This document shows positions 1 to 64,000 of a stretch of 64,000 nucleotides of DNA, in pieces. Position 1 is the stretch's first letter, and every line of letters begins with the position of its first letter. The DNA lies in assembly GCA_047602905.1 (NCBI GenBank), contig JBLKOP010000001.1, forward strand, positions 26,773 through 90,772. The letters run 5' to 3'. Under the pieces are notes generated by a model. It had not been told where the DNA came from and did not search any database. It was given only the letters and a program-made list of their open reading frames with translations. The position numbers and the translations under genes were made by a program. The DNA comes from Candidatus Woesearchaeota archaeon (GTDB taxonomy: Archaea > Nanobdellota > Nanobdellia > Woesearchaeales > SKIA01).

Positions 1-2195
1 AAAGCACACAAACAATAAGCAACCAATGCGAAGAACTCATACCGATTAGCTTTCTGAAAACACACCTAGAACAATACTATCCACACGCAGAAAACCTAGG
101 AAGAACCAAAATACCCAGAAAAATACCCAGCAAGAAAGTAAGCCCGACACCAAGAATATACCTAGAAGAACAAGACGAAGAACTCCTCCTACAACTCCGC
201 TTTGCGTACGAAGAAAAAGAAGTACTCGCAGGAAGCAACCAAGAACTCTACACGTACAGAAACGAAACAATAACACACACAACAAGAGACAAAGAAACAG
301 AAGATTTTTTTAGTATACAGTTCAAAACCAACAACGTACAAGCAACAAGAGACGGGTACACACCAAAAAACAACCCGTACAGCTGGTTAGTAGATGACGC
401 AGAAGAACTCTTAGAGCTAGGTTTTGAAATCTACGGAAAAAACAATCTGCTGCATTTTAATGCACAAAAAACTGTGATAAGCATAAGCACGCATGAACAA
501 CCAGATTATTTGGAGCTGCGCATACACGCAAGCGCAGGAGAGCAAAACATACCCTCGCACGTAATAGCAGAGATGCTACGAGCAGGACAAAGATACGTAA
601 AACTAGCAGACCAAAGCACAGCAGTCATACCACAAAAATACTTAGACAAACTCCAGCACAAACTCGCACTCTTAGAAAAAACGCCCGACGGTCTTAAACT
701 GCATCCAGCACACACAAAGCTCGTAGAAGAACTTGAAGAACTAGCAGAAGAAGTACAACACACAGAAGCGTATACTGCGCTTAAAGAGCGACTCCAAGAA
801 TTCACGCACATACAACAAGCAGAACTACCAGAAAACCTATCTGCGACTCTTAGAGAATACCAACAAGCAGGCTATGACTGGCTACACTTTCTAAACAAAC
901 ACTCATTTGGAGGAATACTCGCAGACGACATGGGACTAGGAAAAACGTTGACATGCTTAGCAATGCTACAATGGGCGTATGAAAACAACCCACAAGCACG
1001 CTTCTTAGTAGTCGTACCAACAAGCTTAGTAGATAATTGGCTAGCAGAAAGAAACAAATTCGCACAAGAAATGCCAGTATACACGCACTACGGAACAAGC
1101 AGAGAAACAAAAGCAGAGAACATACCAGCAGGAATAACCATAACCAGCTACAACACATTACGACTAGACCAAGAACTCCTAGCAAGCATTCAATGGGAGT
1201 ACGCGGTGCTGGACGAAAGCCACGCAATAAAAAACCCCGCAAGCAAAGTAGCCCAAGCAACAAGAACACTAAACGCAAAGAACAAACTCGCAATAACAGG
1301 AACACCAATAGAAAACAACGTAAGCGAGCTATGGAGTCAAATGCAATTCACAAACCCAGGACTACTAGGAAGCTACGAAGCATTCACAACAACTTATGGG
1401 GAAGCAACCACTCAAGAACAAGAAACCCTAAAAAACCTCATAAAACCGTTTTTGCTACGAAGAACAAAACAACAAGTAGCAAAAGACCTACCAAAAAAAA
1501 CCATTCTCACACAACTCTGCGAAATGACAGACAAGCAAGCAAGTCTGTACGAAGCAACCAAACAACACCTCCAAGAAGAAGTAAGAAACGAACTACAACA
1601 AAAAGGAGCAACAAACAAAATATTCTTAGCCCTACTACGACTACGACAACTAGCAAACCACCCACAACTACTCACCAACAACTACCACGCAGAAAGCGGA
1701 AAATTCGAAGCGCTCTTTGAGAAAATACAGGAAGCAATAAGTGAAGGACACAAAATACTCATTTTCAGTAGCTTCACAAAAATACTTGACCTCGTAGAGA
1801 AACAAATGCAAGAACACCTCTACTTACGCATAGACGGAAGCACGAAGAACCGACAAGCACTCGTAGAAGAGTTCCAAACCAACAAACACGTAAACGCATT
1901 TCTTATCAGCCTAAAAGCAGGAGGAGTAGGCCTCACACTAACAGCAGCAGACTACGTATTCATCATAGACCCGTGGTGGAACCCACAAGCAGAAATGCAA
2001 GCAATAGACCGAGCACACAGAATAGGACAACAAAAACCGGTGTTTGTCTACAAGTTCATAACAAAAAACACTGTAGAAGAAAAAATAGCTCGGCTACAAG
2101 AAAGCAAACTAGAACTAGCAAACAACCTCATAACAACAGAGGAGAGCTTCGTAAAACAACTAACAAAAGAAGACCTTATCGGACTCTTTGAGTAA
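1..2195 (+). CDS. SNF2-family DNA helicase/translocase, 5'-partial (frame open from nt 3 to window edge)
   Basis: Helicase motif I ILADDMGLGKT and motif II DESH; C-terminal helicase domain LISLKAGGVGLTLTAADYVFIIDPWWNPQAEMQAIDRAHRIGQ; no stop codon in frame upstream of the annotated GTG at 474. Confidence 0.8.
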   Translation, partial: STQTISNQCEELIPISFLKTHLEQYYPHAENLGRTKIPRKIPSKKVSPTPRIYLEEQDEELLLQLRFAYEEKEVLAGSNQELYTYRNETITHTTRDKETEDFFSIQFKTNNVQATRDGYTPKNNPYSWLVDDAEELLELGFEIYGKNNLLHFNAQKTVISISTHEQPDYLELRIHASAGEQNIPSHVIAEMLRAGQRYVKLADQSTAVIPQKYLDKLQHKLALLEKTPDGLKLHPAHTKLVEELEELAEEVQHTEAYTALKERLQEFTHIQQAELPENLSATLREYQQAGYDWLHFLNKHSFGGILADDMGLGKTLTCLAMLQWAYENNPQARFLVVVPTSLVDNWLAERNKFAQEMPVYTHYGTSRETKAENIPAGITITSYNTLRLDQELLASIQWEYAVLDESHAIKNPASKVAQATRTLNAKNKLAITGTPIENNVSELWSQMQFTNPGLLGSYEAFTTTYGEATTQEQETLKNLIKPFLLRRTKQQVAKDLPKKTILTQLCEMTDKQASLYEATKQHLQEEVRNELQQKGATNKIFLALLRLRQLANHPQLLTNNYHAESGKFEALFEKIQEAISEGHKILIFSSFTKILDLVEKQMQEHLYLRIDGSTKNRQALVEEFQTNKHVNAFLISLKAGGVGLTLTAADYVFIIDPWWNPQAEMQAIDRAHRIGQQKPVFVYKFITKNTVEEKIARLQESKLELANNLITTEESFVKQLTKEDLIGLFE

Positions 2196-2207
2196 CAAAA
2201 AATGTTT

Positions 2208-2759
2208 TTATTCGTTCTTCATAATCTCAGCGTAGCGCTCAAGAGAATCAAGAACTTTAGCTAGTCGATCAGTATAGGTTTCATCAACAAGAACACCTTG
2301 TTCACCAAACACTTCTTGCACCCTACTAATCGCTAAAGACTCAGGAATACTACTACAACCAAGCTTATTAAGAATAGGTCGTAACTGCTCAACTGCACGA
2401 ACACCACCAAAACCCCCAGAGCTATAACTAACAAGTAAGAAAGGAGAACCAAACAACTCCTTACCAAACACGTCAAGAACGTTCTTTAACGAACCAGGAA
2501 ACGAATGATTATACTCAGCAGTAACCGCAACAAACCCATCAGCACGAACAATACGATCGCGAAGCAAAGTAAGTTTCTCAGAAGGACTCGCTAAGAAACC
2601 GTAGCGCTCACGCATAACAAGTAACTCCTCGTACTCAAGAGGATCAAGAAGAAACACCTCATGACCCCTTCTTTGCAAAGAAGAAACAACCCACTCAGAA
2701 ACCTTCATCCCCTCACGACCATCACGAACACTTCCACAAACAACAACAAACTCTGCCAT
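2208..2759 (-). CDS. NAD(P)H-dependent FMN reductase-like flavoprotein
   Basis: Flavodoxin-like fold motifs (MAEFVVVCGS, FPGSLKNVLD); start chosen at MAEF because a palindromic TATA sits about 30 bp upstream on the minus strand. Confidence 0.55.
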   Translation of the reverse strand: MAEFVVVCGSVRDGREGMKVSEWVVSSLQRRGHEVFLLDPLEYEELLVMRERYGFLASPSEKLTLLRDRIVRADGFVAVTAEYNHSFPGSLKNVLDVFGKELFGSPFLLVSYSSGGFGGVRAVEQLRPILNKLGCSSIPESLAISRVQEVFGEQGVLVDETYTDRLAKVLDSLERYAEIMKNE

Positions 2760-2827
2760 AACAACCAACAAACAACCACTCATTAAAAAAACTAACTTAT
2801 AAAAAGCTCTTCTTATAAAACACCCCT

Positions 2828-3961
2828 ATGAGTACGCAAGAAGAAACACGAAGAATACAAGAAGTAATCAAGAACAACGACTACAACGACACACGAGCAA
2901 GCGTACTACTACCGTACCAAGACACGACACCCATAGAACTCACCGCACAAAAATACCGAGGATGCGAAGCACTCGTAATCATAGGAATAGGAGGAAGCAA
3001 CCTAGGAACGTGGGCAGTGCATGAAGCAATACACGGAGAACTCCATAACGAAACAGCAAAAACAAAAGTATACTTTGCGGACACAACAGACGCACACCAA
3101 CTAACAAAACTACAACAACGACTAGAAACCATACAAGGAAGAACTGTATACGTAGTCATAAGCAAAAGCGGAACAACAGCAGAAACAATAGCAAACGCAA
3201 GCATACTCGTAAAGGACTGGAGTGACGCAATCATCATAACAGGAAAAAACAGCCTCCTAGACGGACTTAACGGCGCAAGCACGCTACACATACAAGAACA
3301 AATAGGAGGGCGCTACAGCGTCTTTAGCGCAGTAGGACTCCTCCCACTAGCAATACTAGGAATAAACATAAACCAACTCCTAGCAGGAGCAAGAGGAGCA
3401 CTAGAAAACCTAGAAGCAATAGCGCAACAAGTCAATAAAGAACACGAAGCAAACAAACAAATAACAGAAGCCTTCTTCTTCGCACCACTACAACGACTAG
3501 GGCAGTGGAGAAGACAACTCATAGCAGAAAGCCTAGGAAAAAACGGCAAAGGACCACTACCAACAACAAGAATAGGAAGCACAGACCTACACAGCACAGC
3601 ACAAAGAAGCCTAGACGGACCAAACGACACCTACACAACATTCATAACAGTAGAAGAAACACCAACAATACCCATACCCAACAACAAAACAAGCCAACTC
3701 GTAGAAGACCTAGCAGACAAAACCACCAAACAACTCCTAGAAGCAATACAAGAAGCAACAATGAAAGCGTATGAAGAAGCAAACAGACCCTACAAACACC
3801 TAACCCTACAAAAAATACACGAGAAAAGCATAGGAGCACTCATGCAAACAATGATGCTAGAAACAATGCTACAAGCAAACCTCCTAGGAATAAACGCGTT
3901 TGACCAACCAGCAGTAGAAAACTACAAAAAACACACCAAAGAAAACCTTAAACAACTATGA
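2828..3961 (+). CDS. pgi: glucose-6-phosphate isomerase
   Basis: GIGGSNLG, SKSGTTAET and GGRYSVFSAVG motifs; TATA about 25 bp upstream. Confidence 0.8.
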   Translation: MSTQEETRRIQEVIKNNDYNDTRASVLLPYQDTTPIELTAQKYRGCEALVIIGIGGSNLGTWAVHEAIHGELHNETAKTKVYFADTTDAHQLTKLQQRLETIQGRTVYVVISKSGTTAETIANASILVKDWSDAIIITGKNSLLDGLNGASTLHIQEQIGGRYSVFSAVGLLPLAILGININQLLAGARGALENLEAIAQQVNKEHEANKQITEAFFFAPLQRLGQWRRQLIAESLGKNGKGPLPTTRIGSTDLHSTAQRSLDGPNDTYTTFITVEETPTIPIPNNKTSQLVEDLADKTTKQLLEAIQEATMKAYEEANRPYKHLTLQKIHEKSIGALMQTMMLETMLQANLLGINAFDQPAVENYKKHTKENLKQL

Positions 3962-4696
3962 TCTACGAGTTTTTAGTGCTTCTTTAATATCAGTAATTAC
4001 ACTAAATCCATGGTAATATATTGCGCTACACAACTGAACACTGCTCGCTCCTGCGTGTACTGCTTCTTGCGCGTCTTGAGCATTCATGATGCCTCCTGAA
4101 GCAGAAAAATATGTATCAGAAAACCTTTCTGAGAGTATATGAACAAGAGTCATTGTTTCTGCTCGCAACCCTTCTCCACAACGAGAACTCTTTCCCCAAT
4201 ACAACCCAGGACTGTTAGTTGGTGAGGAATAATACACTCCTATCGTTTCAGAATCAGAAAACGTAAACCCATCAACTGCAAACGCTAGTTGATCTAATAA
4301 CGGCATTTCTTGCTCTTGACGAGCAAGCTTAAAAAGCAAAGGAACTCCGAGCACAGACCTATCTATTCCTTGAATGAACTCATTAAATGCAGAGACTTTT
4401 CTTTTAACAAATCGCCGGTATTCTTGCGTGTTCAAGTCTAAATGTTCATCGTAGAGAAGCTTAATTGGTTTCTTATGACTTCCCTTAAACCAACGACTAT
4501 TAATCTCGATAGCATCTGCTCGTAGCCTGTATACCTCATCAAACTGCTTCTCATTTCTTGGAGCGTGACTTTGAATAACTTTTGTTTTAGGACTGTATTC
4601 TTTGATATCTTCATACAACTTATTTGCTTGCTTGAGCGTAAGTATTTCTATATCTTTTTTATCAGACCAACAATTAACGCTTTGAAGCGCTCGCAT
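3956..4696 (-). CDS. dihydroorotate-dehydrogenase-like TIM-barrel protein, probably N-terminally truncated or degenerate
   Basis: C-terminal GGIMNAQDAQEAVHAGASSVQLCSAIYY resembles DHOD FMN-binding tail; ADAIEINSRWF sits where the ELNLSCPN active-site motif would be (Cys absent); 246 aa is short for DHOD. Confidence 0.4.
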   Translation of the reverse strand: MRALQSVNCWSDKKDIEILTLKQANKLYEDIKEYSPKTKVIQSHAPRNEKQFDEVYRLRADAIEINSRWFKGSHKKPIKLLYDEHLDLNTQEYRRFVKRKVSAFNEFIQGIDRSVLGVPLLFKLARQEQEMPLLDQLAFAVDGFTFSDSETIGVYYSSPTNSPGLYWGKSSRCGEGLRAETMTLVHILSERFSDTYFSASGGIMNAQDAQEAVHAGASSVQLCSAIYYHGFSVITDIKEALKTRRS

Positions 4697-4956
4697 ATCT
4701 TTTCCTTCGATTACTTCTTGATCATTTATTTCTGGAATGATATACTTTGGTGATTTTGAGTTGGTCCCTGAAAAAAGCGGTGCTTTTCCTTTTAGGATGT
4801 GTCGATCTTTTTTTCTTGGAATTGGCTCAAAGAGCGTCTATTCCTGCATCTATTGCTTTCTTTGCATGCCTAAAATTGTCAGTGAATGGCGAGGAAGCCA
4901 TCCATACGTTTCCAAAAGAAAACAACGAATCCATATAACTACCAATTAGTAGTTAT

Positions 4957-5592
4957 TTAAAAGTTTTTATGTTTTTTCTCAACACAAGAAACAATATACT
5001 CCTCGTGAATAACCTGAACAGGAAGAGAACCATCAAGAGTAACTATACGATCACTATGCATCCTAGCAAGTTCATCATAGCCCTGCTTAACAAGAGCATG
5101 AAACGAGTCGTTTTGAGACTCCATACGATCCCTCTCTCCTTTACGAGAATTCAATCTTTGAAGGCGCTCCTCTAAACTAATACTCAAATAAAACGTTACG
5201 TCAGGAACCATATCAAAAGACTCATTCATACGCTGTATCAACCCCCAATGTGGTTGTTGCTGTTGATAACGAGCAAACCCTTGATACGCAGAAGTACTAT
5301 CATAAAAACGATCCATAACAACAGTAACTCCTTGAGCAAGGTGTGGACGAATAACTTCTTCAACCATCTGAGCACGAGAAGCATTAAACAAATACAACTC
5401 AGACAAAGAACTCATATCCTCTCCGTGAAGCAACAACGAACGAATCTGCTCCCCCAAATTAGTACCTCCAGGCTCTCTACGAACAATATGATCTATGCCT
5501 TGCTTAGAAAAATACTCTTTTAGCAACTCAATTTGTGTGCTCTTACCACAACCATCAAGGCCTTCAAACGTAATTAACGGAGCAGACCTCAT
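4957..5592 (-). CDS. tmk: thymidylate kinase
   Basis: P-loop ITFEGLDGCGKST, REPGGT, DRFYDSTSAYQG. Confidence 0.85.
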   Translation of the reverse strand: MRSAPLITFEGLDGCGKSTQIELLKEYFSKQGIDHIVRREPGGTNLGEQIRSLLLHGEDMSSLSELYLFNASRAQMVEEVIRPHLAQGVTVVMDRFYDSTSAYQGFARYQQQQPHWGLIQRMNESFDMVPDVTFYLSISLEERLQRLNSRKGERDRMESQNDSFHALVKQGYDELARMHSDRIVTLDGSLPVQVIHEEYIVSCVEKKHKNF

Positions 5593-6764
5593 GAAGCCAT
5601 ACGGGGAGGAAAACCATTAATAAGTACTTTTTCTGCGCGCTGTTTAATAGCATAGTTTTCTACTACGAAATCATCTACTTCTGTCTCGTTTAGTGGATTA
5701 GAAACAACTCGTAATCTCGGTGGCTCAGCATGACTTCTTCGCCCAAGCTGCTCTAATAAATACGGGACGTGATCATAGCCAGGAGTACCCTCTTCTTCAG
5801 GAAGCTTCTTAAGCAAATCCTCAAGAACGGTGTGCGGGTGCTCTTTTCTGAGTGTATCTTGAAGCCAACGAAGATTATCTTCTTGTGCATACCAAGAAGC
5901 GCGTTTATCTGAACCAACATATATGTGGTGATCACCAATATTATGGATGAACTCTCCGGGTTTTACACCTACTTCAACAGCTATTTTTGCTGTTAATGCT
6001 GCGTATTGTGGAGGATTAAACCCTAAGCCTAAGAAATGGTCTGCGCTTCTTTGATTCATTTGCAAATCAAGGCGCTCCTCTCCAGCTCTATCAGTGTATG
6101 TGTACGCTTGAAACATGTTATGACACGGAGCAAGAGCTGCTCGTTTCAGCTTAACATCAACAGGGTTCCAAGCAGTTACTATGTGATATCTGCTCGTAGG
6201 ATCTTCTTGTAAATGAGTTACCATATCTTGAAGCTGATCAACATAAACAATTCCTTGCTCAGTTACGCCTGCAAAGTTTCTCCACTGTTCAGGATAAAAC
6301 TTACCTAGATCACCTGCCTCAGGATTATTTCCTGATAAAACAAGCTCTTCATACTCTTGTAGTGCATCCTCAAAAGCAGGAGTGTCTTTTTTGAGTTGCT
6401 TTCACTTATGATCGTCAGGAAGCTTGTTTCGATAAAAATTAAACGCGTTAGCAGTCCATATCGTCATTCCCTGCTCCAAATACCACTTCAGGTTCGTCTC
6501 GTTACGAATAAAACCCACTATTTCAGGTAGTAACTGTGATTTGTAGCCTATGGGTTTTGTTTGAGAAAGAGGAAAGCTTTCGTCACTAAGATCGTACACT
6601 GCTTGTGTACCAAAAGAACCTATGGTGTGTATAACTGTTCTACTTGCTTTTCGAAAGTTTAGCTTTGAACTCGTCAATAAATCATAGCTGTGTTGATGAT
6701 ATGCTTTGTCGTGTTTGTTTAATGAACTGTCTTCTCTTGGCTTTAACATTACTGCCCCCAACAC
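5589..6764 (-). pseudogene. thyA: thymidylate synthase ThyA interrupted by one in-frame TGA (plus strand 6402-6404)
   Basis: N-terminal ORF (6402-6764) and C-terminal ORF (5589-6224) are in the same frame, with no other stop in the 59 codons between them; conserved ThyA segments flank and span the TGA (GDLGKFYPEQWRNF, HIVTAWNP, ALAPCHNMFQAY, QRSADHFLGLGFN). Confidence 0.75.
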
Positions 6765-6822
6765 CCCTTTTAATAAGTTCTAAAGCCAACTATATAACTG
6801 TTTTCTTATTACTACTTTGGGA

Positions 6823-6996
6823 CTACTGCTTAGTTAACGCCATAGCAGCAAATCCAAGACCTAAACCAATAAATAAGCTAGCAATAAGAGCGTCCAGTAA
6901 GAACCCAACACCAATACCAAGCATGATACCTGCAGGAATAAACAACCCGCTTCTATCCTCAGAGCCTTTCTTTTTAGCAGACGATTTCTTAGCCAT
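6823..6996 (-). CDS. small membrane protein (57 aa), absent from ORF track
   Basis: Hand translation: MAKKSSAKKKGSEDRSGLFIPAGIMLGIGVGFLLDALIASLFIGLGLGFAAMALTKQ; basic N-terminus followed by one or two TM helices. Confidence 0.35.
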   Translation of the reverse strand: MAKKSSAKKKGSEDRSGLFIPAGIMLGIGVGFLLDALIASLFIGLGLGFAAMALTKQ

Positions 6997-55998: not shown

Positions 55999-56009
55999 GA
56001 ACTTTATTG

Positions 56010-56461: not shown

Positions 56462-57154
56462 TTATTTAAATGTGTTTATTCTTAGAAGAGAAGAAAACGA
56501 TATAGGAACAGCATCCACGCTCACAAACTCCTCAACAAACACTTCACCGCGCTGACGAAGAGAAACCAAGTACTCAGCAACACCACCCTCCTTAAGAGCG
56601 AGCTGAGAAGCATGACAAGCCATTAACTCACGAAACAACTGCATATACTTAGTTACCTCAACACACACGGTAGGTCTATCAAAACGACCAAGCATATAGT
56701 ACAGAACGTGAGACACTCGATGAGCAGAACCAGAAATAGAAGAAGCGTTTTTGAAACGAGCAAGGCGAGTAGCGAAACGAACAGCACTACCAAGAGCGAG
56801 GTGATCCGGATGAGACGAGCCAGAAACGTGACTGTCAGGATTATCGTACCAAGGAGCAAAGACCATAGAGGGCTGGTACTTACGAATAACACCTGCGAGT
56901 TCTTTACGCAAAACAACATTATCCTCAACAGAACAATCCATGTAATCAAGAATCGTAATATCAGCGCCTAAGAAATTCGCTGCCTGCTTCATCTCCGCTT
57001 CACGAACAACAGGAGTGCCAAACGTGCCGCACTCACCACGAGTCAAGACACAAATAGCTATCGAAAACCCCTCTTGAGCAAGCCGGCACAGCGTTGCTCC
57101 CATACCAAACTCAGCATCATCAGGGTGAGCACCAAACACTAAAACATCAACCAT
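56462..57154 (-). CDS. PIG-L/LmbE-family N-acetylglucosaminyl deacetylase
   Basis: HPDDAEFGMG and HPDH metal-binding motifs. Confidence 0.7.
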   Translation of the reverse strand: MVDVLVFGAHPDDAEFGMGATLCRLAQEGFSIAICVLTRGECGTFGTPVVREAEMKQAANFLGADITILDYMDCSVEDNVVLRKELAGVIRKYQPSMVFAPWYDNPDSHVSGSSHPDHLALGSAVRFATRLARFKNASSISGSAHRVSHVLYYMLGRFDRPTVCVEVTKYMQLFRELMACHASQLALKEGGVAEYLVSLRQRGEVFVEEFVSVDAVPISFSSLLRINTFK

Positions 57155-57186
57155 ACCATGTAGTAAGCGTTACGCACACATAAAGG

Positions 57187-57399
57187 TTACTTCTTTTTCT
57201 TACGTTTACCAGACTGCTTAGCAGCAGTTTGTTTCTGAGCACGAACATACAAATACGCAAGAACCGCGATAAGTACTGCAAAACCACCCCAGAACCAAAA
57301 AATACTTGTTGGGTCCTGCGCGTACGCAGGAGGAGAGCCTTGGTGTTGTCCTACAGTGTCGTGATACACTCCAAAAACGAAGGTGGTTACATCAATCAT
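57187..57399 (-). CDS. small membrane protein with poly-Lys tail
   Basis: One TM plus C-terminal SGKRKKKK. Confidence 0.3.
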   Translation of the reverse strand: MIDVTTFVFGVYHDTVGQHQGSPPAYAQDPTSIFWFWGGFAVLIAVLAYLYVRAQKQTAAKQSGKRKKKK

Positions 57400-57474
57400 A
57401 CCTCTTCTATTACGTAAACAACTATAAGTGTTATGCTTAAGTTAAAAAAGCAAACAAGAATACTGTGTGTACAC

Positions 57475-57546
57475 GGGCTCATGGTCTAATGGTATGATAC
57501 TCCGCTGGCAGCGGAGAGACTCCGGGTTCGATCCCCGGTGAGTCCA
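57475..57546 (+). tRNA. tRNA-Ala (anticodon GGC)
   Basis: Acceptor GGGCTCA with G3:U70, anticodon loop CTGGCAG. Confidence 0.75.
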
Positions 57547-57587
57547 GTAAAACCTTATAAATAAGACACAGATACACCATATAAGAC

Positions 57588-57705
57588 GCGGATGTAGCTC
57601 AGCCTGGTTAGAGCACTACGCTCATATTGATGAGCACTGAGATCAAGTTATTGATTGATGACAGGAGATACGTAGGGGTCCGGAGTTCAAATCTCCGCAT
57701 CCGCA
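57588..57705 (+). tRNA. tRNA-Met (anticodon CAT, elongator or Ile2-type) with about 43-nt intron
   Basis: Acceptor GCGGATG/CATCCGC, anticodon stem CTACG/CGTAG, loop CTCATA then intron; TATA 30 bp upstream; T-run downstream. Confidence 0.7.
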
Positions 57706-57766
57706 CCTCTTTTTTTTAGTGTATTAATAGATACGTTTAAGAACAAAACCCTCTTTACAACACACT

Positions 57767-58312
57767 ATGGAATGGTGGATAATAGTAATTATTGTTGTAG
57801 CGGTACTGTGGATTATTCTTATGTACAACGCGTTTGTGCGCGTAAGCAACCAAGTAAAAAACGCATGGGCACAAATTGATGTTCAACTCAAAAGAAGAAC
57901 AGACCTCATCCCAAACCTTATTGAAAGCGTAAAAGGGTATATGAAGCATGAAAAAACTGTTCTTGAAGAAGTAACCAAGGCACGAACAGCGCTTATGGGA
58001 GCACAAACACCAACTGAGAACGCAAAAGCAGACAACATGCTCACAGGAGCACTCAAAAGCTTGTTTGCAGTCAGCGAGAACTACCCAGACCTAAAAGCAA
58101 ACACGAACTTCATACAACTCCAAGAAGAGCTTGTAAGCACGGAGAACAAAGTAGCGTATAGCAGACAACACTACAACGACATGGTAATGAAGTACAACAC
58201 AAAACTACAAAGCTTTCCAAACAACCTCTTTAGCGGAGTCTTTGGTTTTAGCAAGGCGGACAGTTTTGAAGCAGAAGCAACAGACAGAAAACCCGTCAAG
58301 GTAAGTTTCTAA
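57767..58312 (+). CDS. LemA-family protein
   Basis: N-terminal TM plus LemA conserved region ([20 protein letters not shown]...). Confidence 0.7.
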
Positions 58313-58316
58313 ACCG

Positions 58317-59213
58317 ATGGGAAAGCTCGTAAGCTTTGATGAAGTACGAAACAACAACCTACGAAGCACACTACTCATAGCATTCTTCTTAGTCTTCATG
58401 ACAGCACTAGGAGCAGCGATAGGATGGGTGTGGGATAACTACGTGTTCGGAGCAATCATCACGCTTATAGCAGCAAGTATGTACGCGCTCATAGCATACT
58501 TTCAAGGAAGAAACATGGTTAAGCGAATGACTGGTGCACGAGAACTCACAAAACGAGAGTTTCCACACGCATACAACGCAATAGAAGACCTTAGCCTAGC
58601 AGCAGGCATACCAACACCAGACAGATACGTTATCGACACACCAGCACTCAACGCGTTTGCAACAGGAAGAAACCCAGAGAACGCAGCAGTAGTACTCACA
58701 ACAGGACTCATAAAACACCTGAACAGAGAGGAGCTAGAAGGAGTAATAGCACACGAACTTGCACACATAAAAAACTACGATATACGAGTAATGATGATAG
58801 GAGCAGTAATAACAGGAATAATCCTTTTCTTAAGCCAATTTCTTCTCAGAAGCTTCTTCTTTAGCGGCAGTAGACGAAACGACGGAAAAGCAGGAGTTAT
58901 TATGCTTGTTATCGCAATAGTACTAGCAATTCTTAGCCCAATAATTAGTGAAATGATAAAACTCGCTATTAGCCGCAAAAGAGAGTACGCAGCAGACGCA
59001 GGAGCAGCAACGATAACCAGATACCCGCAAGGACTAGCAAACGCTTTACGAAAGATATCAAACGATCCACGACCAGAAGAAAAAATAGCGAACAGCGCGC
59101 TTAATCACATGTACATAAGTAACCCAGACAGAAAAAAAACAGGATTTTGGAGCAAAGCATTTAGTACCCACCCCCCAACAGAAGAACGAATTATGCGCTT
59201 AGAGCGGATGTGA
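58317..59213 (+). CDS. HtpX-like M48 zinc metalloprotease
   Basis: HELAH (HExxH) between TM segments. Confidence 0.75.
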   Translation: MGKLVSFDEVRNNNLRSTLLIAFFLVFMTALGAAIGWVWDNYVFGAIITLIAASMYALIAYFQGRNMVKRMTGARELTKREFPHAYNAIEDLSLAAGIPTPDRYVIDTPALNAFATGRNPENAAVVLTTGLIKHLNREELEGVIAHELAHIKNYDIRVMMIGAVITGIILFLSQFLLRSFFFSGSRRNDGKAGVIMLVIAIVLAILSPIISEMIKLAISRKREYAADAGAATITRYPQGLANALRKISNDPRPEEKIANSALNHMYISNPDRKKTGFWSKAFSTHPPTEERIMRLERM

Positions 59214-59247
59214 AGCTATAAAAAGTTCTGTTCTTATAACAACACCT

Positions 59248-59628
59248 ATGAGCGAGTCACTACGAGAACTAGCAAGAGACTTCTTAGCACTAGGAAGCTG
59301 GATATTTTACGCACTCGTAGTCGTACGAGCACTTATCGAGCCGTACTGGGAGTTTGCAACGCCAGTACTCATAACAGGAGCACTCCTACTCATAACACAA
59401 AACCTCTACGCATACGAAGGATACACCGCACGAGCAACCGCTCTAGTCTACTACACAACGCAGTTCTACCAAGACACGCTCTTTAGCATCTTCGCGTACG
59501 CACTACTACTAGGAGTGCCACTAGCTGCGTACGTAAATGAGAGCACAAAAAAAGAGTTAGCACTAGCAATACTTACAACAATACCATGCATAGCAGTAGG
59601 AGTGCTGATAAGTACGTTATGGATATAA
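59248..59628 (+). CDS. membrane protein
   Basis: 4 TM helices. Confidence 0.35.
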   Translation: MSESLRELARDFLALGSWIFYALVVVRALIEPYWEFATPVLITGALLLITQNLYAYEGYTARATALVYYTTQFYQDTLFSIFAYALLLGVPLAAYVNESTKKELALAILTTIPCIAVGVLISTLWI

Positions 59629-59658
59629 GAAAGAAAAAAATATTTTGTTTACTGCACT

Positions 59659-60138
59659 TTATCCGCAAATAATCGCTTCTATAACGTCAGCTTCATCAAG
59701 ATACACGTTTAGACGATCAACTCGGTAATCCATAGTGACAGCGTCACCAGGACGAATAACTCTGTACGAGTCACTATAGCCAGCAACATCCATCTCCTCA
59801 ATAGACAAACCAAGATAGTCTTGAAGCTGTGAAGCGCCACAAGCATCCTCATCAAAAACAGGCACGTCGTCTTGCTCATTACAAGCACCAGGCGTGTGGT
59901 ACGTTACGTTCTCATTGCTACAAGCAACACAAGAGTTACTATATGTCACGTTGTAATCACCACAAACAGGCATGTACTCGCGAGTACACACTTCAGGGCG
60001 GTTATCCACGTCACACAAAGTAGCCTCGCTAGGCACTTCGCTGACAGGATCAAGGGTTTGGGAATCATCCACAGCAACGCAACCAGCAAAGAGCAGGAGC
60101 GCTGCGAAGACGAACAATACGTTTTTCATACACAACAC
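59659..60138 (-). CDS. secreted lipoprotein with a Kazal-type domain and an I78-family protease-inhibitor domain
   Basis: Lipobox LLFAGC; Kazal Cys spacing C..C..PVCG.DY..TY.N.C.AC; C-terminal SYRVIRPGDAVTMDYRVDRLNVYLDEADVIEAIICG matches the I78 signature. Confidence 0.6.
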   Translation of the reverse strand: MLCMKNVLFVFAALLLFAGCVAVDDSQTLDPVSEVPSEATLCDVDNRPEVCTREYMPVCGDYNVTYSNSCVACSNENVTYHTPGACNEQDDVPVFDEDACGASQLQDYLGLSIEEMDVAGYSDSYRVIRPGDAVTMDYRVDRLNVYLDEADVIEAIICG

Positions 60139-60188
60139 AAAGACAACAGCATTTATAAATATCGAAGATAGTTACCACAACCATAGAA

Positions 60189-60524
60189 ATGACCTCTACA
60201 GAACCAACAGAGAACACGAGCAAACAACGGCTCAGAGTAGCAACAGGACTACTCATAGCTCCTTTAATGACAGCAGCCTACAAACTAGGAAAAAAACAGC
60301 CGTGGAGCGCACTAGAAACAACAGCAGCAGGAGTAGGGCTTGTTCTGTACCAGTGGAGATGGGCAGTTCCGCTCTACATAGCAACAGCACTTACACCCTC
60401 TGCTCAATCAAACACACCAACTCCCCTCTCGCAACTAGAAGAAATAGTAATTGAGCAATGCATAGACGCAACACAAAAAGATACCTCCTACGCGCAGCAA
60501 CCAATAGACTTCTTGTACGAATAA
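60189..60524 (+). CDS. small membrane protein
   Basis: 2 TM helices. Confidence 0.3.
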   Translation: MTSTEPTENTSKQRLRVATGLLIAPLMTAAYKLGKKQPWSALETTAAGVGLVLYQWRWAVPLYIATALTPSAQSNTPTPLSQLEEIVIEQCIDATQKDTSYAQQPIDFLYE

Positions 60525-60555
60525 ACATATAAACAGCACGCCGCTTAACGAACTC

Positions 60556-62223
60556 ATGGAACTTGAGCAATTCATAAAACAAGTACTCCTTGATAACGCA
60601 ATTAAATACGAAGGAGAAACAACACCCAAAGCAGCTCTAGGAGCAGTAATGAGAGAATACCCTGAGTACAGAGGAAAAACCCAAGAAATACTTGCACTAA
60701 CAAAACCACTCGTAGAAGAAATAAACGCTTTATCAGTAGAGGAGCAAAAACAACTCCTCAGCACACTAGGAGGTAGCGGAGCTCCAGAAAAAGAAGAGAA
60801 GAACCAATGGGAGCTAGAAGGAGAAAACCTTGTTTTACGCTTTGAGCCAAGCCCAAGCGGGCCGATGCACATAGGACACGCGTACAGCCTAGGAGTAAAC
60901 CACCTACTAGCAGCTCGTAACGACGCAAAACTCATCCTACGAATAGCAGACACCAACCCAGACAATATTTATGAGCCAGCATACAAACTCCTTGAAGAAG
61001 ACGCGAACTGGTACACGCACCAAAACATCGCAGAAGTAATCATCCAAAGCGACCGCCTAGAACTCTACTACACCTACGCAGAACAACTCCTGCAACGAGG
61101 ACACGCATATATTTGCACGTGCGAAGCAGAGAAGAGCAGAGAACACCTCAAAGAACAACAAGCATGTGAATGCAGAGAATTATCTGTAGGAGAAAACATC
61201 CAGCGATGGGAGCTCATGAAAACAACCTGGGAGCCAGGAGACGCAGTAATGAGACTAAAAACCGATCTCACACACAAAAACCCCGCGATGAGAGACTTTC
61301 CGCTCATGAGAATACACCACGGAAACCACCCGCGAGCAGGAACAAAATACGCTGTTTGGCCGCTTATGAACTTCTCCGTGTTCGTTGACGACGTAGAAAG
61401 CAACATGACACACATCCTACGAGCAAAAGACCACGCAGATAACGCAAAAAGACAAGAATACCTCTACAAATACTTCAACAAACCAATACCAGAAACGTTC
61501 TTTGTAGGAAAAATCAACTTCACAGACCTAAAACTCTCCACCTCACAAACAAGAAAACTCATTGATGAAGGAGTATACACGGGCTGGGACGACATCAGAC
61601 TACCCTTTCTACCTGCTCTACGAAGAAGAGGATACCAAGCAGAAGCGTTCTTACGACTCGCAGACGAGGTAGGGATAACCCAAACAGACAAGACACTCAG
61701 TAAAGAAGAATATTTTAAGACCATAAACGCGTATAACAAAGAACTCATCGACGCACAAGCAAACAGAGCGTTTCTCATACAAACACCCGTTCTCATAACC
61801 ATACAAGGAGCACCAACGATTACTGTACAGAAAGCAAAACACCCAGACAAAAAAGTAGGAACTCGCGAATTAGTAGTGGGAGAAGACGTATACGTGGATG
61901 AAGAAGACCTTAAAGAACCGCAAGGAGTAATTTTTCGCCTCATAGACGCGTATAACTTCCAGTACATTAACGGCAGCTTTGTATACCTTGATAGCGACGT
62001 AGAAACGTACAAACAAGCACCTAAGAAACGCATACTGCATTACGTACCAGCACAAGAAGCTCTAGAAGCAACGCTTCTTACACCTGATGGACGAGTACAC
62101 GCAGCAAAAGCAGAGAAAAGCGTTGCAGAATACGAACAGGACACGATCGTACAGTTTGAGAGAGTAGGCTACGCACGCCTAGACGATAAAAAAACATTTA
62201 CTTTTTGGTATACTCACCCCTAA
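60556..62223 (+). CDS. gltX: glutamyl-tRNA synthetase, archaeal/eukaryal type
   Basis: HIGH-region PSGPMHIGHA; archaeal GluRS architecture; TATA 24 bp upstream. Confidence 0.8.
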   Translation: MELEQFIKQVLLDNAIKYEGETTPKAALGAVMREYPEYRGKTQEILALTKPLVEEINALSVEEQKQLLSTLGGSGAPEKEEKNQWELEGENLVLRFEPSPSGPMHIGHAYSLGVNHLLAARNDAKLILRIADTNPDNIYEPAYKLLEEDANWYTHQNIAEVIIQSDRLELYYTYAEQLLQRGHAYICTCEAEKSREHLKEQQACECRELSVGENIQRWELMKTTWEPGDAVMRLKTDLTHKNPAMRDFPLMRIHHGNHPRAGTKYAVWPLMNFSVFVDDVESNMTHILRAKDHADNAKRQEYLYKYFNKPIPETFFVGKINFTDLKLSTSQTRKLIDEGVYTGWDDIRLPFLPALRRRGYQAEAFLRLADEVGITQTDKTLSKEEYFKTINAYNKELIDAQANRAFLIQTPVLITIQGAPTITVQKAKHPDKKVGTRELVVGEDVYVDEEDLKEPQGVIFRLIDAYNFQYINGSFVYLDSDVETYKQAPKKRILHYVPAQEALEATLLTPDGRVHAAKAEKSVAEYEQDTIVQFERVGYARLDDKKTFTFWYTHP

Positions 62224-62342
62224 AAAGCACGAATACGCGCGTAAGAAGCCGTATAACCACAAGTTTTATATAATAAGTTTCTGCTAAGAAGTATAGAGAG
62301 AGCGTTTAGGCGTTCTTTTCAAAAAAATATACGGAGATAAAA

Positions 62343-62516
62343 ACAAAAAAATGGCAGATTCAATTGTCGTAAAGGCAAAAATTAAAGACGTCGCAGCTGG
62401 CTACAACATCGCTGGTGACTTCGCAGAAGCACTAGACAAACACGCACGAAAACTCATCAAAGATGCAGTTAAGCGAGCTGAAGCTAACAACCGAAAAACG
62501 GTTATGGCAAAGGACC
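62343..62516 (+). CDS. small protein (57 aa), possibly histone-fold-like; absent from ORF track
   Basis: Hand translation MADSIVVKAKIKDVAAGYNIAGDFAEALDKHARKLIKDAVKRAEANNRKTVMAKDL; C-terminal half resembles archaeal histone alpha2-L2-alpha3. Confidence 0.3.
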
Positions 62517-62776
62517 TATAAAGGTCCAACTTTTTTTTTCTTTATTTTTTCTTCAAGCAAACGCACCTGAGACTGCAAAACTGCTTGTTTAGGATGATCT
62601 CTACTTCTTGCTAAAACTTCTTTTATCTGCGCTAACTCCTCCTCTAACAACAAAATAGTTGCTTGCTGGCGAGAAGGAATGTGTGTAGGGAGGTGATTAG
62701 AAAAATACACGTGCTCAGGCTTAGCTACGTGTTGAGCAGTAACGAGCTTACTAAATACGTACCAATGCTTTTTCAT
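62516..62776 (-). CDS. hypothetical protein
   Basis: ORF only. Confidence 0.25.
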   Translation of the reverse strand: MKKHWYVFSKLVTAQHVAKPEHVYFSNHLPTHIPSRQQATILLLEEELAQIKEVLARSRDHPKQAVLQSQVRLLEEKIKKKKVGPL

Positions 62777-63123
62777 TGAAACTCACGCATAATACTTTTG
62801 CGAGTAGCAGGAACCTCTTCTTCACGCTTCCAAGGAGGAGTTGATTCCTCAGAAGACTTTAGTGGGTAGCTAGGATTGGTACTTAAGTGATTATCCGCGA
62901 GTGCAAGAATACCTTTAGCGATGCGCTCGTTTTGATGAATTAATTGATCAAGCTTTTGCGCGTCTTGATGAAAGCCTTGCTGGTACTCTGCGTGCATTTC
63001 TTTATTCGCTTGCTCAAACAACGTAATAAGTTTACTAATCTGCGTTGCTAACCGATCCATTGACTCAATAAGAGTAAGTGACGTTTTGTAGTCTTTTACA
63101 GAAGGTTCTTTCTCACGCTCCAT
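62773..63123 (-). CDS. hypothetical protein
   Basis: ORF only; palindromic TATA about 25 bp upstream. Confidence 0.25.
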   Translation of the reverse strand: MEREKEPSVKDYKTSLTLIESMDRLATQISKLITLFEQANKEMHAEYQQGFHQDAQKLDQLIHQNERIAKGILALADNHLSTNPSYPLKSSEESTPPWKREEEVPATRKSIMREFQ

Positions 63124-63379
63124 GCCTTACTAACAGAAGCGTTGCTTTATAAACATGCCTTTTTGCACAAAAACGTATACTAGAGGTGAAAAAACCTCAT
63201 TAACAACGAAAAAATCGCTTTTTCGGAAGAAAAAAAACAATTAATAGACGCTCTAAGAAGCACGTAAACAAAGAAAATAAGCGTTTTTGACGCACAAAAC
63301 ATTTCTCGATACGCTTTTATACTCCTAAACACAAAAACACACATAGAAACACATGCGCACAAGCGCAAAAAGTAAAGCA

Positions 63380-63958
63380 ATGAATAACAACAAAAAAGCA
63401 GAAATGGGAGTAGGAACGCTCATCATATTTATCGCACTCCTACTCGTAGCAGCAGTAGCAGCAGGAGTACTCATACAAACAGCAGGATCCCTGCAACAAC
63501 AAGCGCTTACAACAGGAAAAGCAACCCAGTCAGAAATAAGCACGAACGCACGAGTAATAGAAGTCTCCGCAACAAATGGAAGCACACAAACAATTAGTAA
63601 CTTCAGCATGCAAATGCGCCTAAGCCCAGGAAGCGACCCACTAAAACTAGAAGAAGTAATCCTCACACTCAACACAGATGACGAAACACTCACGCTACAA
63701 TACAGCGGAAACGAAACATACCAAACAACAGGAAGTGCAGGGACATACGGAGTACGCTACCTCATCAACGGAAGCAACCACGTAGCAGGAGTTCTGCAAC
63801 GAGGAGACGTCATACAAGTAGACTTTAGCAGCCCAAGCCCAATAGGGCGCTCACAAGCAGTACGGCTAAACTTCATACCAAAAGTAGGGACGCCAACACT
63901 CGTAAAATTCGCTACACCAGACCTGATAAGCACAGAACGAGTATACCTATACCCATAA
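63380..63958 (+). CDS. archaellin / archaeal type IV pilin-like protein
   Basis: Class III signal peptide [38 protein letters not shown] closely resembles the FlaB/ArlB N-terminus. Confidence 0.6.
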
Positions 63959-64000
63959 ACACGAGCAAAAAAATACTTTTTTTAAACAATTTTTATAAAC

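Follow-up and report, generated by a model that had tools for sequence, protein, structure and literature searches.

The DNA analyzed here belongs to the chromosome of a small DPANN archaeon of the Woesearchaeota type and lies on a contig of at least 179 kb. We examined 82 kb of this chromosome, including the 64-kb stretch referred to below as the window, to which all coordinates refer. An rRNA operon in the window is flanked on one side by a divergent radical SAM/GINS51 gene pair and on the other by genes encoding an Avd-like protein, an HD-domain protein, Kae1, and several small proteins, followed by a Bat operon. The remainder consists of housekeeping genes and a variable island with tRNA genes and toxin-antitoxin cassettes (Table 1).

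Table 1. Features of the 64-kb window (AT3, third-position AT skew)
Feature	Position	Strand	Contents and skew
A+C regime on plus strand	1..14513	both	A/C at plus-strand third positions in SNF2, FMN reductase, PGI, Tmk, two PRC-barrel, DedA, phosphorylase, inositol monophosphatase, AhpC, DoxX, metallophosphatase
Low-skew patch	3.96-7.1 kb		DHO_dh and split ThyA
Reversed block 1	14588..16158	-	AbiEii toxin gene and upstream partner; AT3 -0.45 and -0.06
Variable island	16159..25002		Mixed/weak skew; tRNA-Glu, intron-containing tRNA, tRNA-Gly, CNNM-CBS, unknown ORFs, second AbiE cassette, NYN gene
tRNA-Glu	16429-16503		
Reversed block 2	20855..22324	-	Second AbiEii cassette, 33-nt direct repeat at ends
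A+C regime climbing to saturation	25003..30985		S-layer (AT3 +0.36), small ORFs including HicA, radical SAM (-, +0.93), GINS51 (+, +0.94)
rRNA promoter and leader	right end of 25003..30985		A+C minus G+T = +0.39
rRNA operon	30986..35786	+	16S, tRNA-Ala, 23S; skew not visible
Reversed block 3, G+T regime	35787..38965	both	Avd-like/23S_rRNA_IVP (+), HD_4 (-), Kae1 (+), small proteins (-)
Right switch point	38966..39065		Divergent promoter spacer of 100 bp; last small gene (-) to its left, BatA (+) to its right
Bat region	39066..47304	+	BatA, VWA, DUF7502, MoxR, DUF58, Tag glycosylase; weak A+C skew, +0.05 rising to about +0.4
A+C regime	47305..64000	both	AT3 +0.4 to +0.9; RNase H (-), LysRS-type class II tRNA synthetase (-), L16, NOG1 GTPase (-), S6e, eIF2-gamma, TFIIE, PIG-L (-), GluRS-type synthetase, archaellin

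The two strands of this region differ very strongly in composition. In sliding windows, the plus-strand value of (A+C)-(G+T) peaks at +0.58 at 30.0 to 30.5 kb, reaches its minimum of -0.54 at 36.5 to 37.0 kb, and exceeds |0.2| in 57 of 128 windows of 500 bp. The standard deviation among windows is 0.221, with a lag-1 autocorrelation of 0.77, versus 0.044 in 200 shuffles, in which the largest deviation was 0.207. The extreme, block-structured A+C versus G+T asymmetry described in the initial annotation is thus confirmed. The plus strand is A+C rich between -7.7 kb and +74 kb, except in three blocks, and the regime to the right of 47305 extends to at least +74 kb. Within the window, the A+C-rich intervals given earlier (1 to 14.5, 24.7 to 30.9, and 39 to 64 kb) hold for the most part, but the zones at 4 to 7 kb and 39 to 43 kb are almost unskewed, with AT3 of only 0.05 to 0.17 in DHO_dh, ThyA, BatA, and VWA. 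Skew strength is also uneven from gene to gene within one regime (ThyA and DHO_dh are near 0 beside Tmk at 0.53). The left flank has no monotonic skew gradient, and the sole rise runs from 39 to about 55 kb. The dominant component is the A/T disparity, with an AT skew of 0.4 to 0.7 per gene versus a GC skew of 0.1 to 0.4. On the plus strand, four-fold sites in the A+C regime contain A at 0.68 to 0.73, C at 0.15 to 0.18, G at 0.06 to 0.08, and T at 0.06, and those at 35.8 to 39.0 kb mirror them, with T at 0.80, G at 0.15, C at 0.03, and A at 0.02. Where the sequence is free to vary, one strand is about 70 to 80% A and the other about 70 to 80% T. The skew is carried by spacers as well, is weaker at codon positions 1 and 2 than at third positions, and, owing to functional constraint, is not visible in the rRNA genes.

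It is the DNA strand, not the gene, that sets the direction of the bias. Pfam confirmed genes on both strands. Third positions are A.66, C.29, G.03, and T.02 in GINS51 (+) and, on the coding strand, T.66, G.29, A.02, and C.02 in the neighboring radical SAM gene (-); within the third reversed block, they are T.66 and G.28 in Kae1 (+) and, on the coding strand, A.70 and C.26 in HD_4 (-). Outside the reversed blocks, third positions were G+T rich in all 13 Pfam-confirmed minus-strand genes (binomial p = 0.0002), and the four-fold composition of plus- and minus-strand genes is mirror-imaged both within each regime and between regimes. Since the pressure tracks the strand, plus-strand genes use NNA/NNC codons and minus-strand genes NNT/NNG. 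Transcription-associated skew would follow each gene's non-template strand, but adjacent divergent genes (radical SAM with GINS, HD with Kae1) have the same plus-strand bias. The earlier claim that the bias ignores gene orientation therefore stands; neither a lack of block structure nor an explanation by gene orientation was found. Altogether, the A+C-rich strand encodes 78% of the codons in the 82 kb.

The asymmetry extends to protein sequence, with proteins drifting, according to strand, toward Lys/Asn/Thr/Pro/Gln/His or toward Phe/Leu/Val/Gly/Cys/Trp. In Kae1, the FLVGCW fraction is 0.444, versus 0.328 +/- 0.021 in 159 orthologues, and the KNTPQH fraction is 0.123, versus 0.251 +/- 0.024, placing its composition more than 5 SD away from the family. 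The radical SAM protein shows the same kind of shift on the other strand, and the Kae1 sub-clade as a whole is compositionally shifted. These amino acid shifts support a long-term pressure. Several Woesearchaeota/Pacearchaeota relatives carry weaker versions of the bias: four of them (L092, L060, L077, and L070) have uniform skew over 10 to 21 kb whatever the gene strand, Kae1 GC3 skew reaches up to 0.95, and skewed relatives have a G+T-rich rRNA sense strand. A strand bias that is a lineage trait is thus supported, as is a persistent strand-specific mutation pressure; the suggestion that the bias is mutational and of the light-strand/heavy-strand type agrees with its appearance in both gene orientations, spacers, four-fold sites, amino acids, and relatives. 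It has to be considered whether selection rather than mutation might produce the pattern, given that a near two-letter alphabet at third positions would abolish self-complementarity and keep single-stranded DNA or mRNA unstructured. However, the two gene orientations within one block yield opposite mRNA alphabets, spacers are skewed equally, the departure of an essential enzyme such as Kae1 from its family norm is a cost and not an adaptation, and related genomes form a continuum of skew strengths. We regard selection as a highly improbable explanation.

Two of the reversed blocks are of a different kind from the third. Blocks 1 and 2 are far weaker (AT3 of about -0.4, compared with -0.9 to -1.0 in block 3), and both contain an AbiEii gene (Pfam E = 3.8-3.9e-28). 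The second cassette is flanked by a 33-nt direct repeat (20855-20887/22292-22324, 88% identical), while a search around the first for an att-like repeat of tRNA-Glu found none. Block 2 had been delimited at 20.9 to 22.57 kb; the reversal is present there, but moderate plus-strand G+T richness, spacers included, reaches about 24.5 kb. Similarly, a block boundary had been placed at a tRNA gene, yet tRNA-Glu is a further 270 bp to the right of block 1. Upstream of the S-layer gene, where the window has its island, relative L191 carries a MazE/PIN pair and housekeeping genes. These observations support the view that the two weak blocks, with other accessory genes, represent mobile AbiE toxin-antitoxin cassettes in a variable tRNA island, and they would retain the composition of an earlier genomic context.

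Block 3 is a native syntenic segment that has been under the same pressure on the opposite strand for a long time. Its four-fold composition applies to genes of both strands, its spacers are equally skewed, and its small minus-strand proteins are rich in Thr/His/Pro/Gln/Asn and have apparent N-terminal signal peptides. As its four-fold sites mirror those of the flanks, the same process is indicated on the opposite strand. The ancestral gene order is the one seen here (23S, Avd, HD, Kae1, small genes, Bat operon), and order and orientation relative to the 23S gene are common to at least 25 distant relatives. At the junction with the Bat operon (39.0 kb), synteny is full in the closer relatives L184, L187, and L188; the sign changes at exactly the same spacer in the relatives with 71 to 75% Kae1 identity (L184 and L187), and the spacer sequence is conserved among the window and these three genomes (AAGCGTTTAAAAAG; ACTACTAGTA). 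A relative at 90% identity, L186, is as saturated as the window (AT3 of -1.00 in Avd and -0.99 in Kae1), and only 16% of same-amino-acid codons differ between the two, mostly by G/T swaps.

The initial annotation had interpreted all reversed blocks as inversions or inserted cassettes, which fits blocks 1 and 2 but not block 3, with its conserved synteny and switch. Its model of a recent local inversion of native DNA under one chromosome-wide bias draws on the mirrored composition of block 3, on boundaries that are sharp to within about 100 bp, and on rearrangements that do occur in the clade: the radical SAM/GINS pair is in the opposite regime in L190, a contig that shares its sample of origin with L184, and neither L190 nor L191 has the GINS-to-16S adjacency. 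Against it, order and orientation are ancestral across both visible edges, L184 and L187 switch at the same spacer, L186 is still saturated, and the Kae1 protein is shifted throughout its sub-clade. No inverted repeats were found flanking block 3, the only long inverted repeat being the 23S processing stem (32789-32820 with 35804-35835). Furthermore, under so strong a pressure a relic inversion would be overwritten, so the reversed regime of block 3 is long-lived and maintained and not inherited from a flip. The recent-inversion model is already largely refuted, and we consider it quite unlikely. It is also conceivable that the Kae1 block was recently replaced by a sister-lineage allele of opposite polarity through one crossover in the 23S gene, since rRNA genes supply homology for exchange between diverged lineages and the left switch falls within the operon. 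However, L186, L184, and L187 all share the polarity and the right-hand switch, which are therefore ancestral to the group, and such an import seems decidedly unlikely.

The left edge of block 3 is less sharply placed than the right. The reversed skew first becomes visible at the 23S 3' end, where a boundary had been noted, but the true switch lies somewhere in 30.98 to 35.8 kb, inside the constrained rRNA operon. The short-read contigs of the organism have their break points at 31013-31017 on the left and, on the right, at 35634 or deeper in the flank: those on the left stop about 30 nt into the 16S gene, those on the right start 152 nt before the 23S end or further right, and none spans the operon. 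This would be expected if the left flank and the Kae1 flank came from two rRNA operons or were otherwise misjoined, making the switch across the operon artificial. Such a chimera would leave the 39.0-kb switch unexplained, as six samples yielded identically assembled contigs that contain this switch and relatives share it; moreover, the breaks sit where community-wide conserved rRNA k-mers start, and DPANN genomes usually have a single rRNA operon. A chimera is, in our judgment, quite improbable. Independently assembled contigs, drawn from no fewer than two series of runs (SRR281545xx and SRR324568xx), match the window at or close to 100% identity. In the stretches covered by these contigs, the sequence bias is not an assembly artefact.

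The position of block 3 also raises the question of whether very heavy transcription of the rRNA operon continues past its end into the next 3 kb, where R-loops and plus-strand deamination would override the genome-wide replication bias, with an effect fading over the Bat operon. Block 3 starts at the 3' end of the operon, is tied to conserved synteny, and has its G+T richness on the non-template strand, as is known for transcription-associated mutation, and skew recovers gradually from 39 to 50 kb. However, block 3 at equilibrium mirrors the composition of its flanks exactly, suggesting one process and not a second. T8 and T7 runs, the form taken by archaeal intrinsic terminators, lie just past the 23S processing stem; the rRNA leader and spacers are not G+T rich; and the right-hand step at 39.0 kb is abrupt. 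In addition, among 18 relatives with the same synteny, 23S-adjacent genes are not G+T richer than distant ones (difference 0.011, p = 0.70). Read-through is thus an unlikely source of the reversal.

We propose instead, at a probability of about 0.5, that a strand-specific pressure, the mobile origin of blocks 1 and 2, and replication of block 3 in the opposite direction jointly explain the pattern. With moderate confidence, we infer that a short segment is copied the opposite way, from an origin to a fork-arrest site beside the rRNA operon, while the rest of the chromosome is copied essentially one way. Block 3 would be bounded by a replication start and by a site next to the operon at which forks are arrested or fuse, and may begin inside or upstream of the operon. 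One fork would travel just 3 to 8 kb, the distance separating the two native polarity switches, and the other would copy essentially all of the remaining chromosome. Between 39 and about 50 kb, where skew is low and rising, the two forks may meet at variable positions. In this zone, both BatA and VWA are less A+C skewed in the window than in relatives with weaker skew: sites with G/T in the window and A/C in both relatives number 52 in BatA (19 with the reverse pattern) and 50 in VWA (11 with the reverse pattern). The simplest chemistry would be damage to a strand left single-stranded during replication, through cytosine deamination (C to T), adenine deamination (A to G), and depurination, after which A is inserted across from the gap (A or G to T). 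At free sites, the exposed strand would then approach about 80% T and 15% G, and the other strand about 70 to 80% A and 15% C.

Several observations sit less easily with a replication reading. In the 82 kb, neither boundary has origin-like anatomy, with no Orc1/Cdc6 gene, ORB-like repeats, or long AT-rich spacer; the boundary spacers are just about 100 to 130 bp, and that at 39.0 kb resembles an ordinary conserved divergent promoter. If the G+T-rich strand were leading, as seems to be the case in skewed relatives with a G+T-rich rRNA sense strand, 78% of codons would be head-on to replication. The left boundary is hidden in the operon where short-read contigs break, and skew strength varies between genes of one regime. 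Finally, the opposite regime of the radical SAM/GINS pair in L190 means that rearrangements relative to replication occur in the clade too.

Replication-associated strand asymmetry, with GC and AT skew and strand-dependent codon usage as in Borrelia, is a feature of bacterial and some archaeal chromosomes. It has been reviewed, e.g., in PMC3269012. The present asymmetry resembles it in following the strand, being strongest at synonymous and non-coding sites, being of the G+T versus A+C (keto/amino) type, affecting codon and amino acid usage, and changing sign at discrete points. It differs in being far greater (third-position AT skew of 0.9 to 1.0 and GC skew of 0.7 to 0.9, with two bases almost excluded), in the dominance of AT over GC skew, and in showing, where two long replichores would be expected, a short conserved stretch of reverse polarity. 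The expectation that a G+T-rich leading strand carries most genes and the rRNA operon does not hold, as most genes and the operon flanks are on the A+C-rich strand.

Animal mitochondrial DNA has a heavy/light-strand asymmetry under strand-displacement replication. The relevant literature includes PMC2939890 and PMC10730292. Shared with that system are A+C-rich and G+T-rich strands, four-fold sites nearly without two bases, protein composition set by the coding strand, and a presumed cause in damage to the strand that is long single-stranded. Unlike mitochondrial DNA, the molecule studied here is the chromosome of an archaeal cell and carries housekeeping genes and an rRNA operon; it has no clear distance gradient, reverses its polarity locally (35.8 to 39.0 kb), and has A far above C. 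In CPR Microgenomates, Kadnikov et al. 2020 (PMC7143001) described a chromosome-wide G/C disparity (C 29.8% versus G 15.0%) with no A/T disparity, and suggested that origin and terminus are near each other or that theta replication is unidirectional. That case likewise concerns an ultra-small uncultivated prokaryote with a lineage-restricted bias irrespective of gene distribution, whereas here the A/T disparity is the larger component, the host is archaeal and not bacterial, and there is a local reverse-polarity block, of which that study describes none.

Local skew inversions have served to flag a recent inversion or a misassembly (Chen et al. 2020, PMC7111523). Block 3 is similarly a short opposite-sign stretch within a long one-sign stretch, but its order and sign change are conserved across species and it is at equilibrium; as far as its right edge is concerned, it is therefore not a recent inversion and not a misassembly either. 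In eukaryotic rDNA, a polar replication fork barrier at the rRNA 3' side and a nearby origin make replication effectively unidirectional. This is a functional analogy for the proposed mechanism only, with barrier and origin hypothetical here, and no such arrangement is known from archaea. The conserved opposite polarity beside the rRNA genes points to an unusual mode of chromosome copying and not to flipped DNA. If the replication-direction reading is true, this archaeon would represent replication-linked strand asymmetry in a new form.

In 500-bp windows, plus-strand (A+C)-(G+T) spans +0.58 to -0.54. The block-structured skew claimed in the initial annotation is evident in these sliding windows: the standard deviation is 0.221, compared to 0.044 in shuffles, for which the greatest deviation was 0.207, and adjacent windows are strongly correlated. 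Genes on both strands were confirmed by Pfam, and composition was then computed per codon position. In the A+C-rich regime, third positions of the plus-strand GINS51 gene are A.66, C.29, G.03, and T.02, and those of the minus-strand radical SAM gene mirror them (T.66, G.29, A.02, and C.02). G/T endings are the rule in 13 of 13 minus-strand genes confirmed beyond the reversed blocks (p = 0.0002), which, together with the mirrored third positions, upholds the claim that the bias disregards gene orientation. Four-fold sites on the plus strand of this regime carry A.68-.73, C.15-.18, G.06-.08, and T.06, whichever strand is coding; at 35.8 to 39.0 kb they carry T.78-.80, G.15, C.03-.04, and A.02 in both gene orientations. 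Spacers are likewise skewed. Since third-position and four-fold composition tracks the DNA strand, gene orientation was rejected as the cause. A bisulfite-like conversion of one base was rejected on inspection, as the A+C-rich strand is depleted in T and G alike. A sequencing or assembly artefact was ruled out as the source by intact ORFs and by independently assembled contigs from two run series, SRR281545xx and SRR324568xx, which match the window at 100% identity over tens of kilobases.

When the region is extended with these identical contigs, plus-strand third positions are A/C rich from -7.7 kb to +74 kb except in three blocks. The bias of the A+C tracts originally delineated is real, but 4 to 7 kb and 39 to 43 kb are almost without skew; similarly, reversal is strong in block 3 but weak in blocks 1 and 2, the second of which extends to ~24.5 kb. 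Skew is also uneven from gene to gene within one regime, with ThyA and DHO_dh at ~0 beside Tmk at 0.53. Thymidylate synthase is split into two minus-strand ORFs (211 and 120 aa) with nearly no strand skew. A homologue search with ThyA at E <= 1e-30 returned only itself, and recent horizontal transfer was therefore rejected as the explanation for its lack of skew. The split thyA may be a decaying or unusual gene, though it lacks the skew expected of neutral DNA here. All contigs of the window organism are clonal, their sole variants lying in a 240-bp stretch of the S-layer gene, where 8 SNPs and one 3-nt deletion cluster. These differ between samples, are not adenine specific, and look like a localised hypervariable patch.

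The nearest Kae1 relatives in one-genome-per-species and metagenome collections belong to Woesearchaeota, Pacearchaeota, and Nanoarchaeota MAGs at <=58% identity. The identical protein is recorded in an NCBI "Candidatus Woesearchaeota archaeon" MAG (longest contig, 179 kb) and in many Logan assemblies. Across 160 Kae1 loci, third-position AT skew spans -0.79 to +0.50 and GC skew reaches +0.95; Kae1 in the window has an AT skew of -0.94, the extreme of that comparison, and a GC skew of +0.74. Relatives' contigs L092, L060, L077, and L070 show uniform skew over 10 to 21 kb, independent of gene orientation, and in relatives with appreciable skew the G+T-rich strand is the rRNA sense strand. The relation of polarity to gene orientation in the window is opposite to that in relatives. 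Strand bias is a lineage trait whose strengths form a continuum. It is also visible in proteins. Kae1, coded on the G+T-rich strand, contains 44.4% Phe/Leu/Val/Gly/Cys/Trp and 12.3% Lys/Asn/Thr/Pro/Gln/His, compared to 32.8 +/- 2.1% and 25.1 +/- 2.4% in 159 orthologues. Composition is displaced in the same way in radical SAM and throughout the Kae1 sub-clade (63 to 90% identity), while GINS51, with an A+C-rich coding strand, is visibly high in Thr, Gln, Asn, Lys, and Pro. The strand pressure is thus old and reaches proteins. In automatic gene calls for contigs L083, L085, and L086, two spurious plus-strand ORFs at 36.2 to 36.9 kb replace the real minus-strand HD gene, showing that two-letter strands yield long false ORFs and mislead annotation.

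Blocks 1 and 2 consist of AbiEii toxin genes with partner genes (Pfam E = 3.8-3.9e-28) within a 10-kb island that also holds three tRNA genes, an NYN gene, and unknown ORFs. The AbiEii proteins of the two cassettes share only a distant relationship. Cassette 2 is bracketed by a 33-nt direct repeat; an att-like repeat of tRNA-Glu was not found around cassette 1. Their moderate skew and A-rich coding strand fit an insertion of mobile DNA in reverse, as initially suggested. Toxin-antitoxin modules in the GINS-radical SAM spacer also differ, with HicA in the window and ParE plus DUF7557 in the relative L191, and L190 has a HEPN/Pol-beta pair directly adjoining the opposite side of GINS. The GINS/radical SAM neighbourhood is a hot spot for toxin-antitoxin cassettes.

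Block 3 had likewise been proposed to be an inversion or a reverse-inserted cassette; a recent inversion is contradicted by its conserved synteny and polarity switch. The 16S, 23S, Avd-like, (HD), and Kae1 genes keep the same order and relative orientation in at least 25 distant relatives. Among closer relatives, which were located via protein search, L184, L187, and L188 (Kae1 identity of 75%, 71%, and 66%) keep Avd(+), HD(-), Kae1(+), small genes(-), BatA(+), VWA, DUF7502, MoxR, DUF58, RNase H(-), and LysRS(-). In L184 and L187, where skew is weaker overall, its sign flips at the same divergent spacer from G+T to A+C rich in both gene orientations. Relative L186 (90% identity) matches the window in saturation, with third-position AT skews of -1.00 in Avd and -0.99 in Kae1, and its codons for the same amino acid differ from those of the window in only 16% of cases, chiefly by G/T exchange. 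Inverted repeats flanking block 3 were not found, and its composition is an exact mirror of its flanks. Since strong pressure would erase an inverted relic long before 10 to 30% protein divergence, the opposite regime must be maintained in place. The state common to L186, L184, and L187 contradicts import of block 3 from a sister lineage, and the adjoining Bat operon is vertical, with no recent transfer. Selection to keep strands unstructured conflicts with the opposite mRNA alphabets within one block and with the cost at the protein level.

The left polarity switch falls in the interval from 30.98 to 35.8 kb. Reversed skew first becomes visible at the 3' end of 23S, named initially as a block boundary, but the switch may lie anywhere in that interval. 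A switch at this end had been suggested by A+C-rich leader and internal spacers versus a T-rich 23S trailer; these were dropped as a guide to its place because the low-skew relatives L188 and L051 have similar spacers and trailers, indicating a composition intrinsic to the operon. Lineage-specific substitutions in 16S and 23S comprised 42 versus 24 and 62 versus 46 transitions, with controls trending alike, and 10 versus 8 on the window branch. Short-read contigs of the window organism stop ~30 nt into 16S, and right-flank contigs pick up no earlier than 152 nt before the end of 23S, so the join across the operon is provisional. The GINS-to-16S adjacency is absent from L190 and L191, and in L190, a contig from the sample of L184, the radical SAM/GINS pair is in the opposite regime. 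An assembly chimera could account for the left switch alone. L191, from a GC-rich relative (59%) in which T fills just 0 to 4% of the third positions of plus-strand genes, has a 6-kb block of reversed polarity of its own, carrying VWA, Nop10, eIF2-alpha, L44e, and GINS. That block stops at the divergent spacer separating the 5' side of GINS from the DUF7557/ParE pair, which in turn lies upstream of radical SAM. Among these relatives, L184 and L190 derive from ERZ27265951, L186 from ERZ27301260, L187 from Ga0399987_004637, and L191, 53.6 kb in length, from SRR34348050.

Features of the window and of compared contigs (window positions unless a contig is named)
Feature	Position	Strand	Remark
Split thymidylate synthase	5589-6224; 6402-6764	-	
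Block 1	14588-16158		AbiEii cassette
tRNA match, ~120 nt	18172-18293	-	Rfam yes, ARAGORN no
Block 2	20855-22324 (cassette; skew to ~24.5 kb)		AbiEii cassette
S-layer gene	25003-27576		variants at 26617-26857
HicA	28527-28757		GINS-radical SAM spacer
16S	30986-32456		archaeal rRNA operon
tRNA-Ala			in rRNA operon with 16S and 23S
23S	32888-35786		rRNA operon
32-nt inverted repeat	32789-32820; 35804-35835		97% complementary, brackets 23S
Block 3	35787-38965		G+T-rich plus strand
Avd-like gene	35914-36309	+	PF05635, directly downstream of 23S, upstream of Kae1
39.0-kb spacer	38966-39065		right switch point
Tag 3-methyladenine glycosylase	46633-47304		
RNase H	48474-48866	-	RVT_3 match at 48477-48866
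tRNA match, ~120 nt	57588-57705	+	Rfam yes, ARAGORN no
UDG-family uracil-DNA glycosylase	L171, 13261-13794		0.5-1.0 kb left of window start
HEPN/Pol-beta pair	L190, 3735-4429		beside GINS
Reverse-polarity block	L191, 3561-9391		
ParE and DUF7557	L191, 9471-9958		GINS-radical SAM spacer

Beyond the rRNA operon the window contains additional tRNA genes, and the two ~120-nt matches are probably intron-containing archaeal tRNA genes. The inverted repeat around 23S is the rRNA processing stem; T8 and T7 runs 3' of it resemble operon terminators, and L187 shares this layout. Such T runs are the form taken by archaeal intrinsic terminators. The Avd-like gene encodes a four-helix bundle of the "23S rRNA-intervening sequence protein" family and also lies between 23S and Kae1 in L070, L051, L015, L027, L122, L123, L184, L186, and L187. 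Its linkage to the rRNA operon in many Woesearchaeota is conserved. A diversity-generating retroelement, an idea raised by this gene, was rejected: there is no reverse transcriptase, the RVT_3 match being RNase H, and the S-layer variants lack adenine specificity.

The proposal of a persistent strand-specific mutational bias is sustained by independence from gene orientation, by skewed four-fold sites and spacers, and by displaced proteins, and we hold strand-specific mutation pressure with high confidence. Orientation independence, the effect on free sites, and long uniform tracts form a signature of replication-linked asymmetry. On an exposed strand, C, A, and G might mostly become T or G through deamination, and through depurination followed by A insertion; such damage would account for the equilibrium of one strand at ~80% T and 15% G. 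The simplest reading of the exact mirror in block 3 would be the same process on the other strand, i.e., local replication in the opposite direction, in which we have moderate confidence. It would require a start and a site of fork arrest or fusion 3 to 8 kb apart next to the rRNA operon, the other fork copying the remainder of the chromosome. Skew climbs from +0.05 in BatA to ~+0.4 at 44 kb and +0.6 to +0.9 beyond 51 kb, and the BatA and VWA genes of the window show less A+C skew than their counterparts in relatives of weaker overall skew. Both observations support opposite-direction replication of block 3 and may mark a stretch over which the meeting point of forks varies. In the fullest version of this reading, to which we assign a probability of about 0.3, nearly the entire chromosome would be copied one way in this lineage, and a site of polar fork arrest or of fork fusion would lie just 3 to 8 kb from the start, the two flanking the rRNA operon; an exposed or poorly repaired parental strand would drive free sites to nearly two letters, and coding strand would set proteome composition. 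In function, this arrangement would resemble the rDNA fork barrier of eukaryotes. Kadnikov et al. (PMC7143001), dealing with a CPR bacterium whose G/C disparity spans the chromosome, proposed that origin and terminus lie close together or that theta replication is unidirectional. The presence of genes for UDG, Tag, and RNase H indicates that the extreme bias is not simply due to total loss of base-excision repair genes.

Several observations count against the replication-direction reading: no Orc1/Cdc6 gene, ORB-like repeats, or long AT-rich spacer was found at either boundary, the 39.0-kb spacer resembles a conserved divergent promoter, and 78% of codons in this region would run head-on against replication should the G+T-rich strand be the leading one. 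Alternatively, rRNA read-through or R-loop mutagenesis may have shaped block 3, whose position and direction fit. However, the mirror-image equilibrium weakens this explanation, as do the T8 and T7 runs just 3' of the 23S stem, the suddenness of the change at 39.0 kb, and the comparison of 18 syntenic relatives, which showed no skew effect near the rRNA genes (p = 0.70).

Strand asymmetry itself is textbook knowledge; new here are its amplitude, an A/T disparity exceeding the G/C disparity, and a conserved, maintained segment of reverse polarity beside the rRNA operon. We know of no experimental knowledge of replication in this DPANN group and of no description in archaea of effectively unidirectional replication in which origin and arrest site adjoin the rRNA operon. 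Our literature search found no reports of strand asymmetry in Woesearchaeota or other DPANN archaea, and the patterns that Chen et al. (PMC7111523) mention for some archaea and a single DPANN genome are all of the ordinary bidirectional type. Whatever the mechanism, gene finders report long false opposite-strand ORFs in such DNA, codon-usage and composition-based binning or detection of horizontal transfer will misfire, and phylogenies of strand-switched proteins will carry compositional artefacts, with Kae1, a universal marker, >5 SD off in amino-acid composition. The window also offers a natural experiment on the limits to which mutation pressure can distort essential proteins. If the replication reading is true, these uncultivated DPANN archaea hold a readable record of how their chromosomes replicate, and that record would indicate copying in effectively one direction, with an origin and an arrest site next to the rRNA operon.
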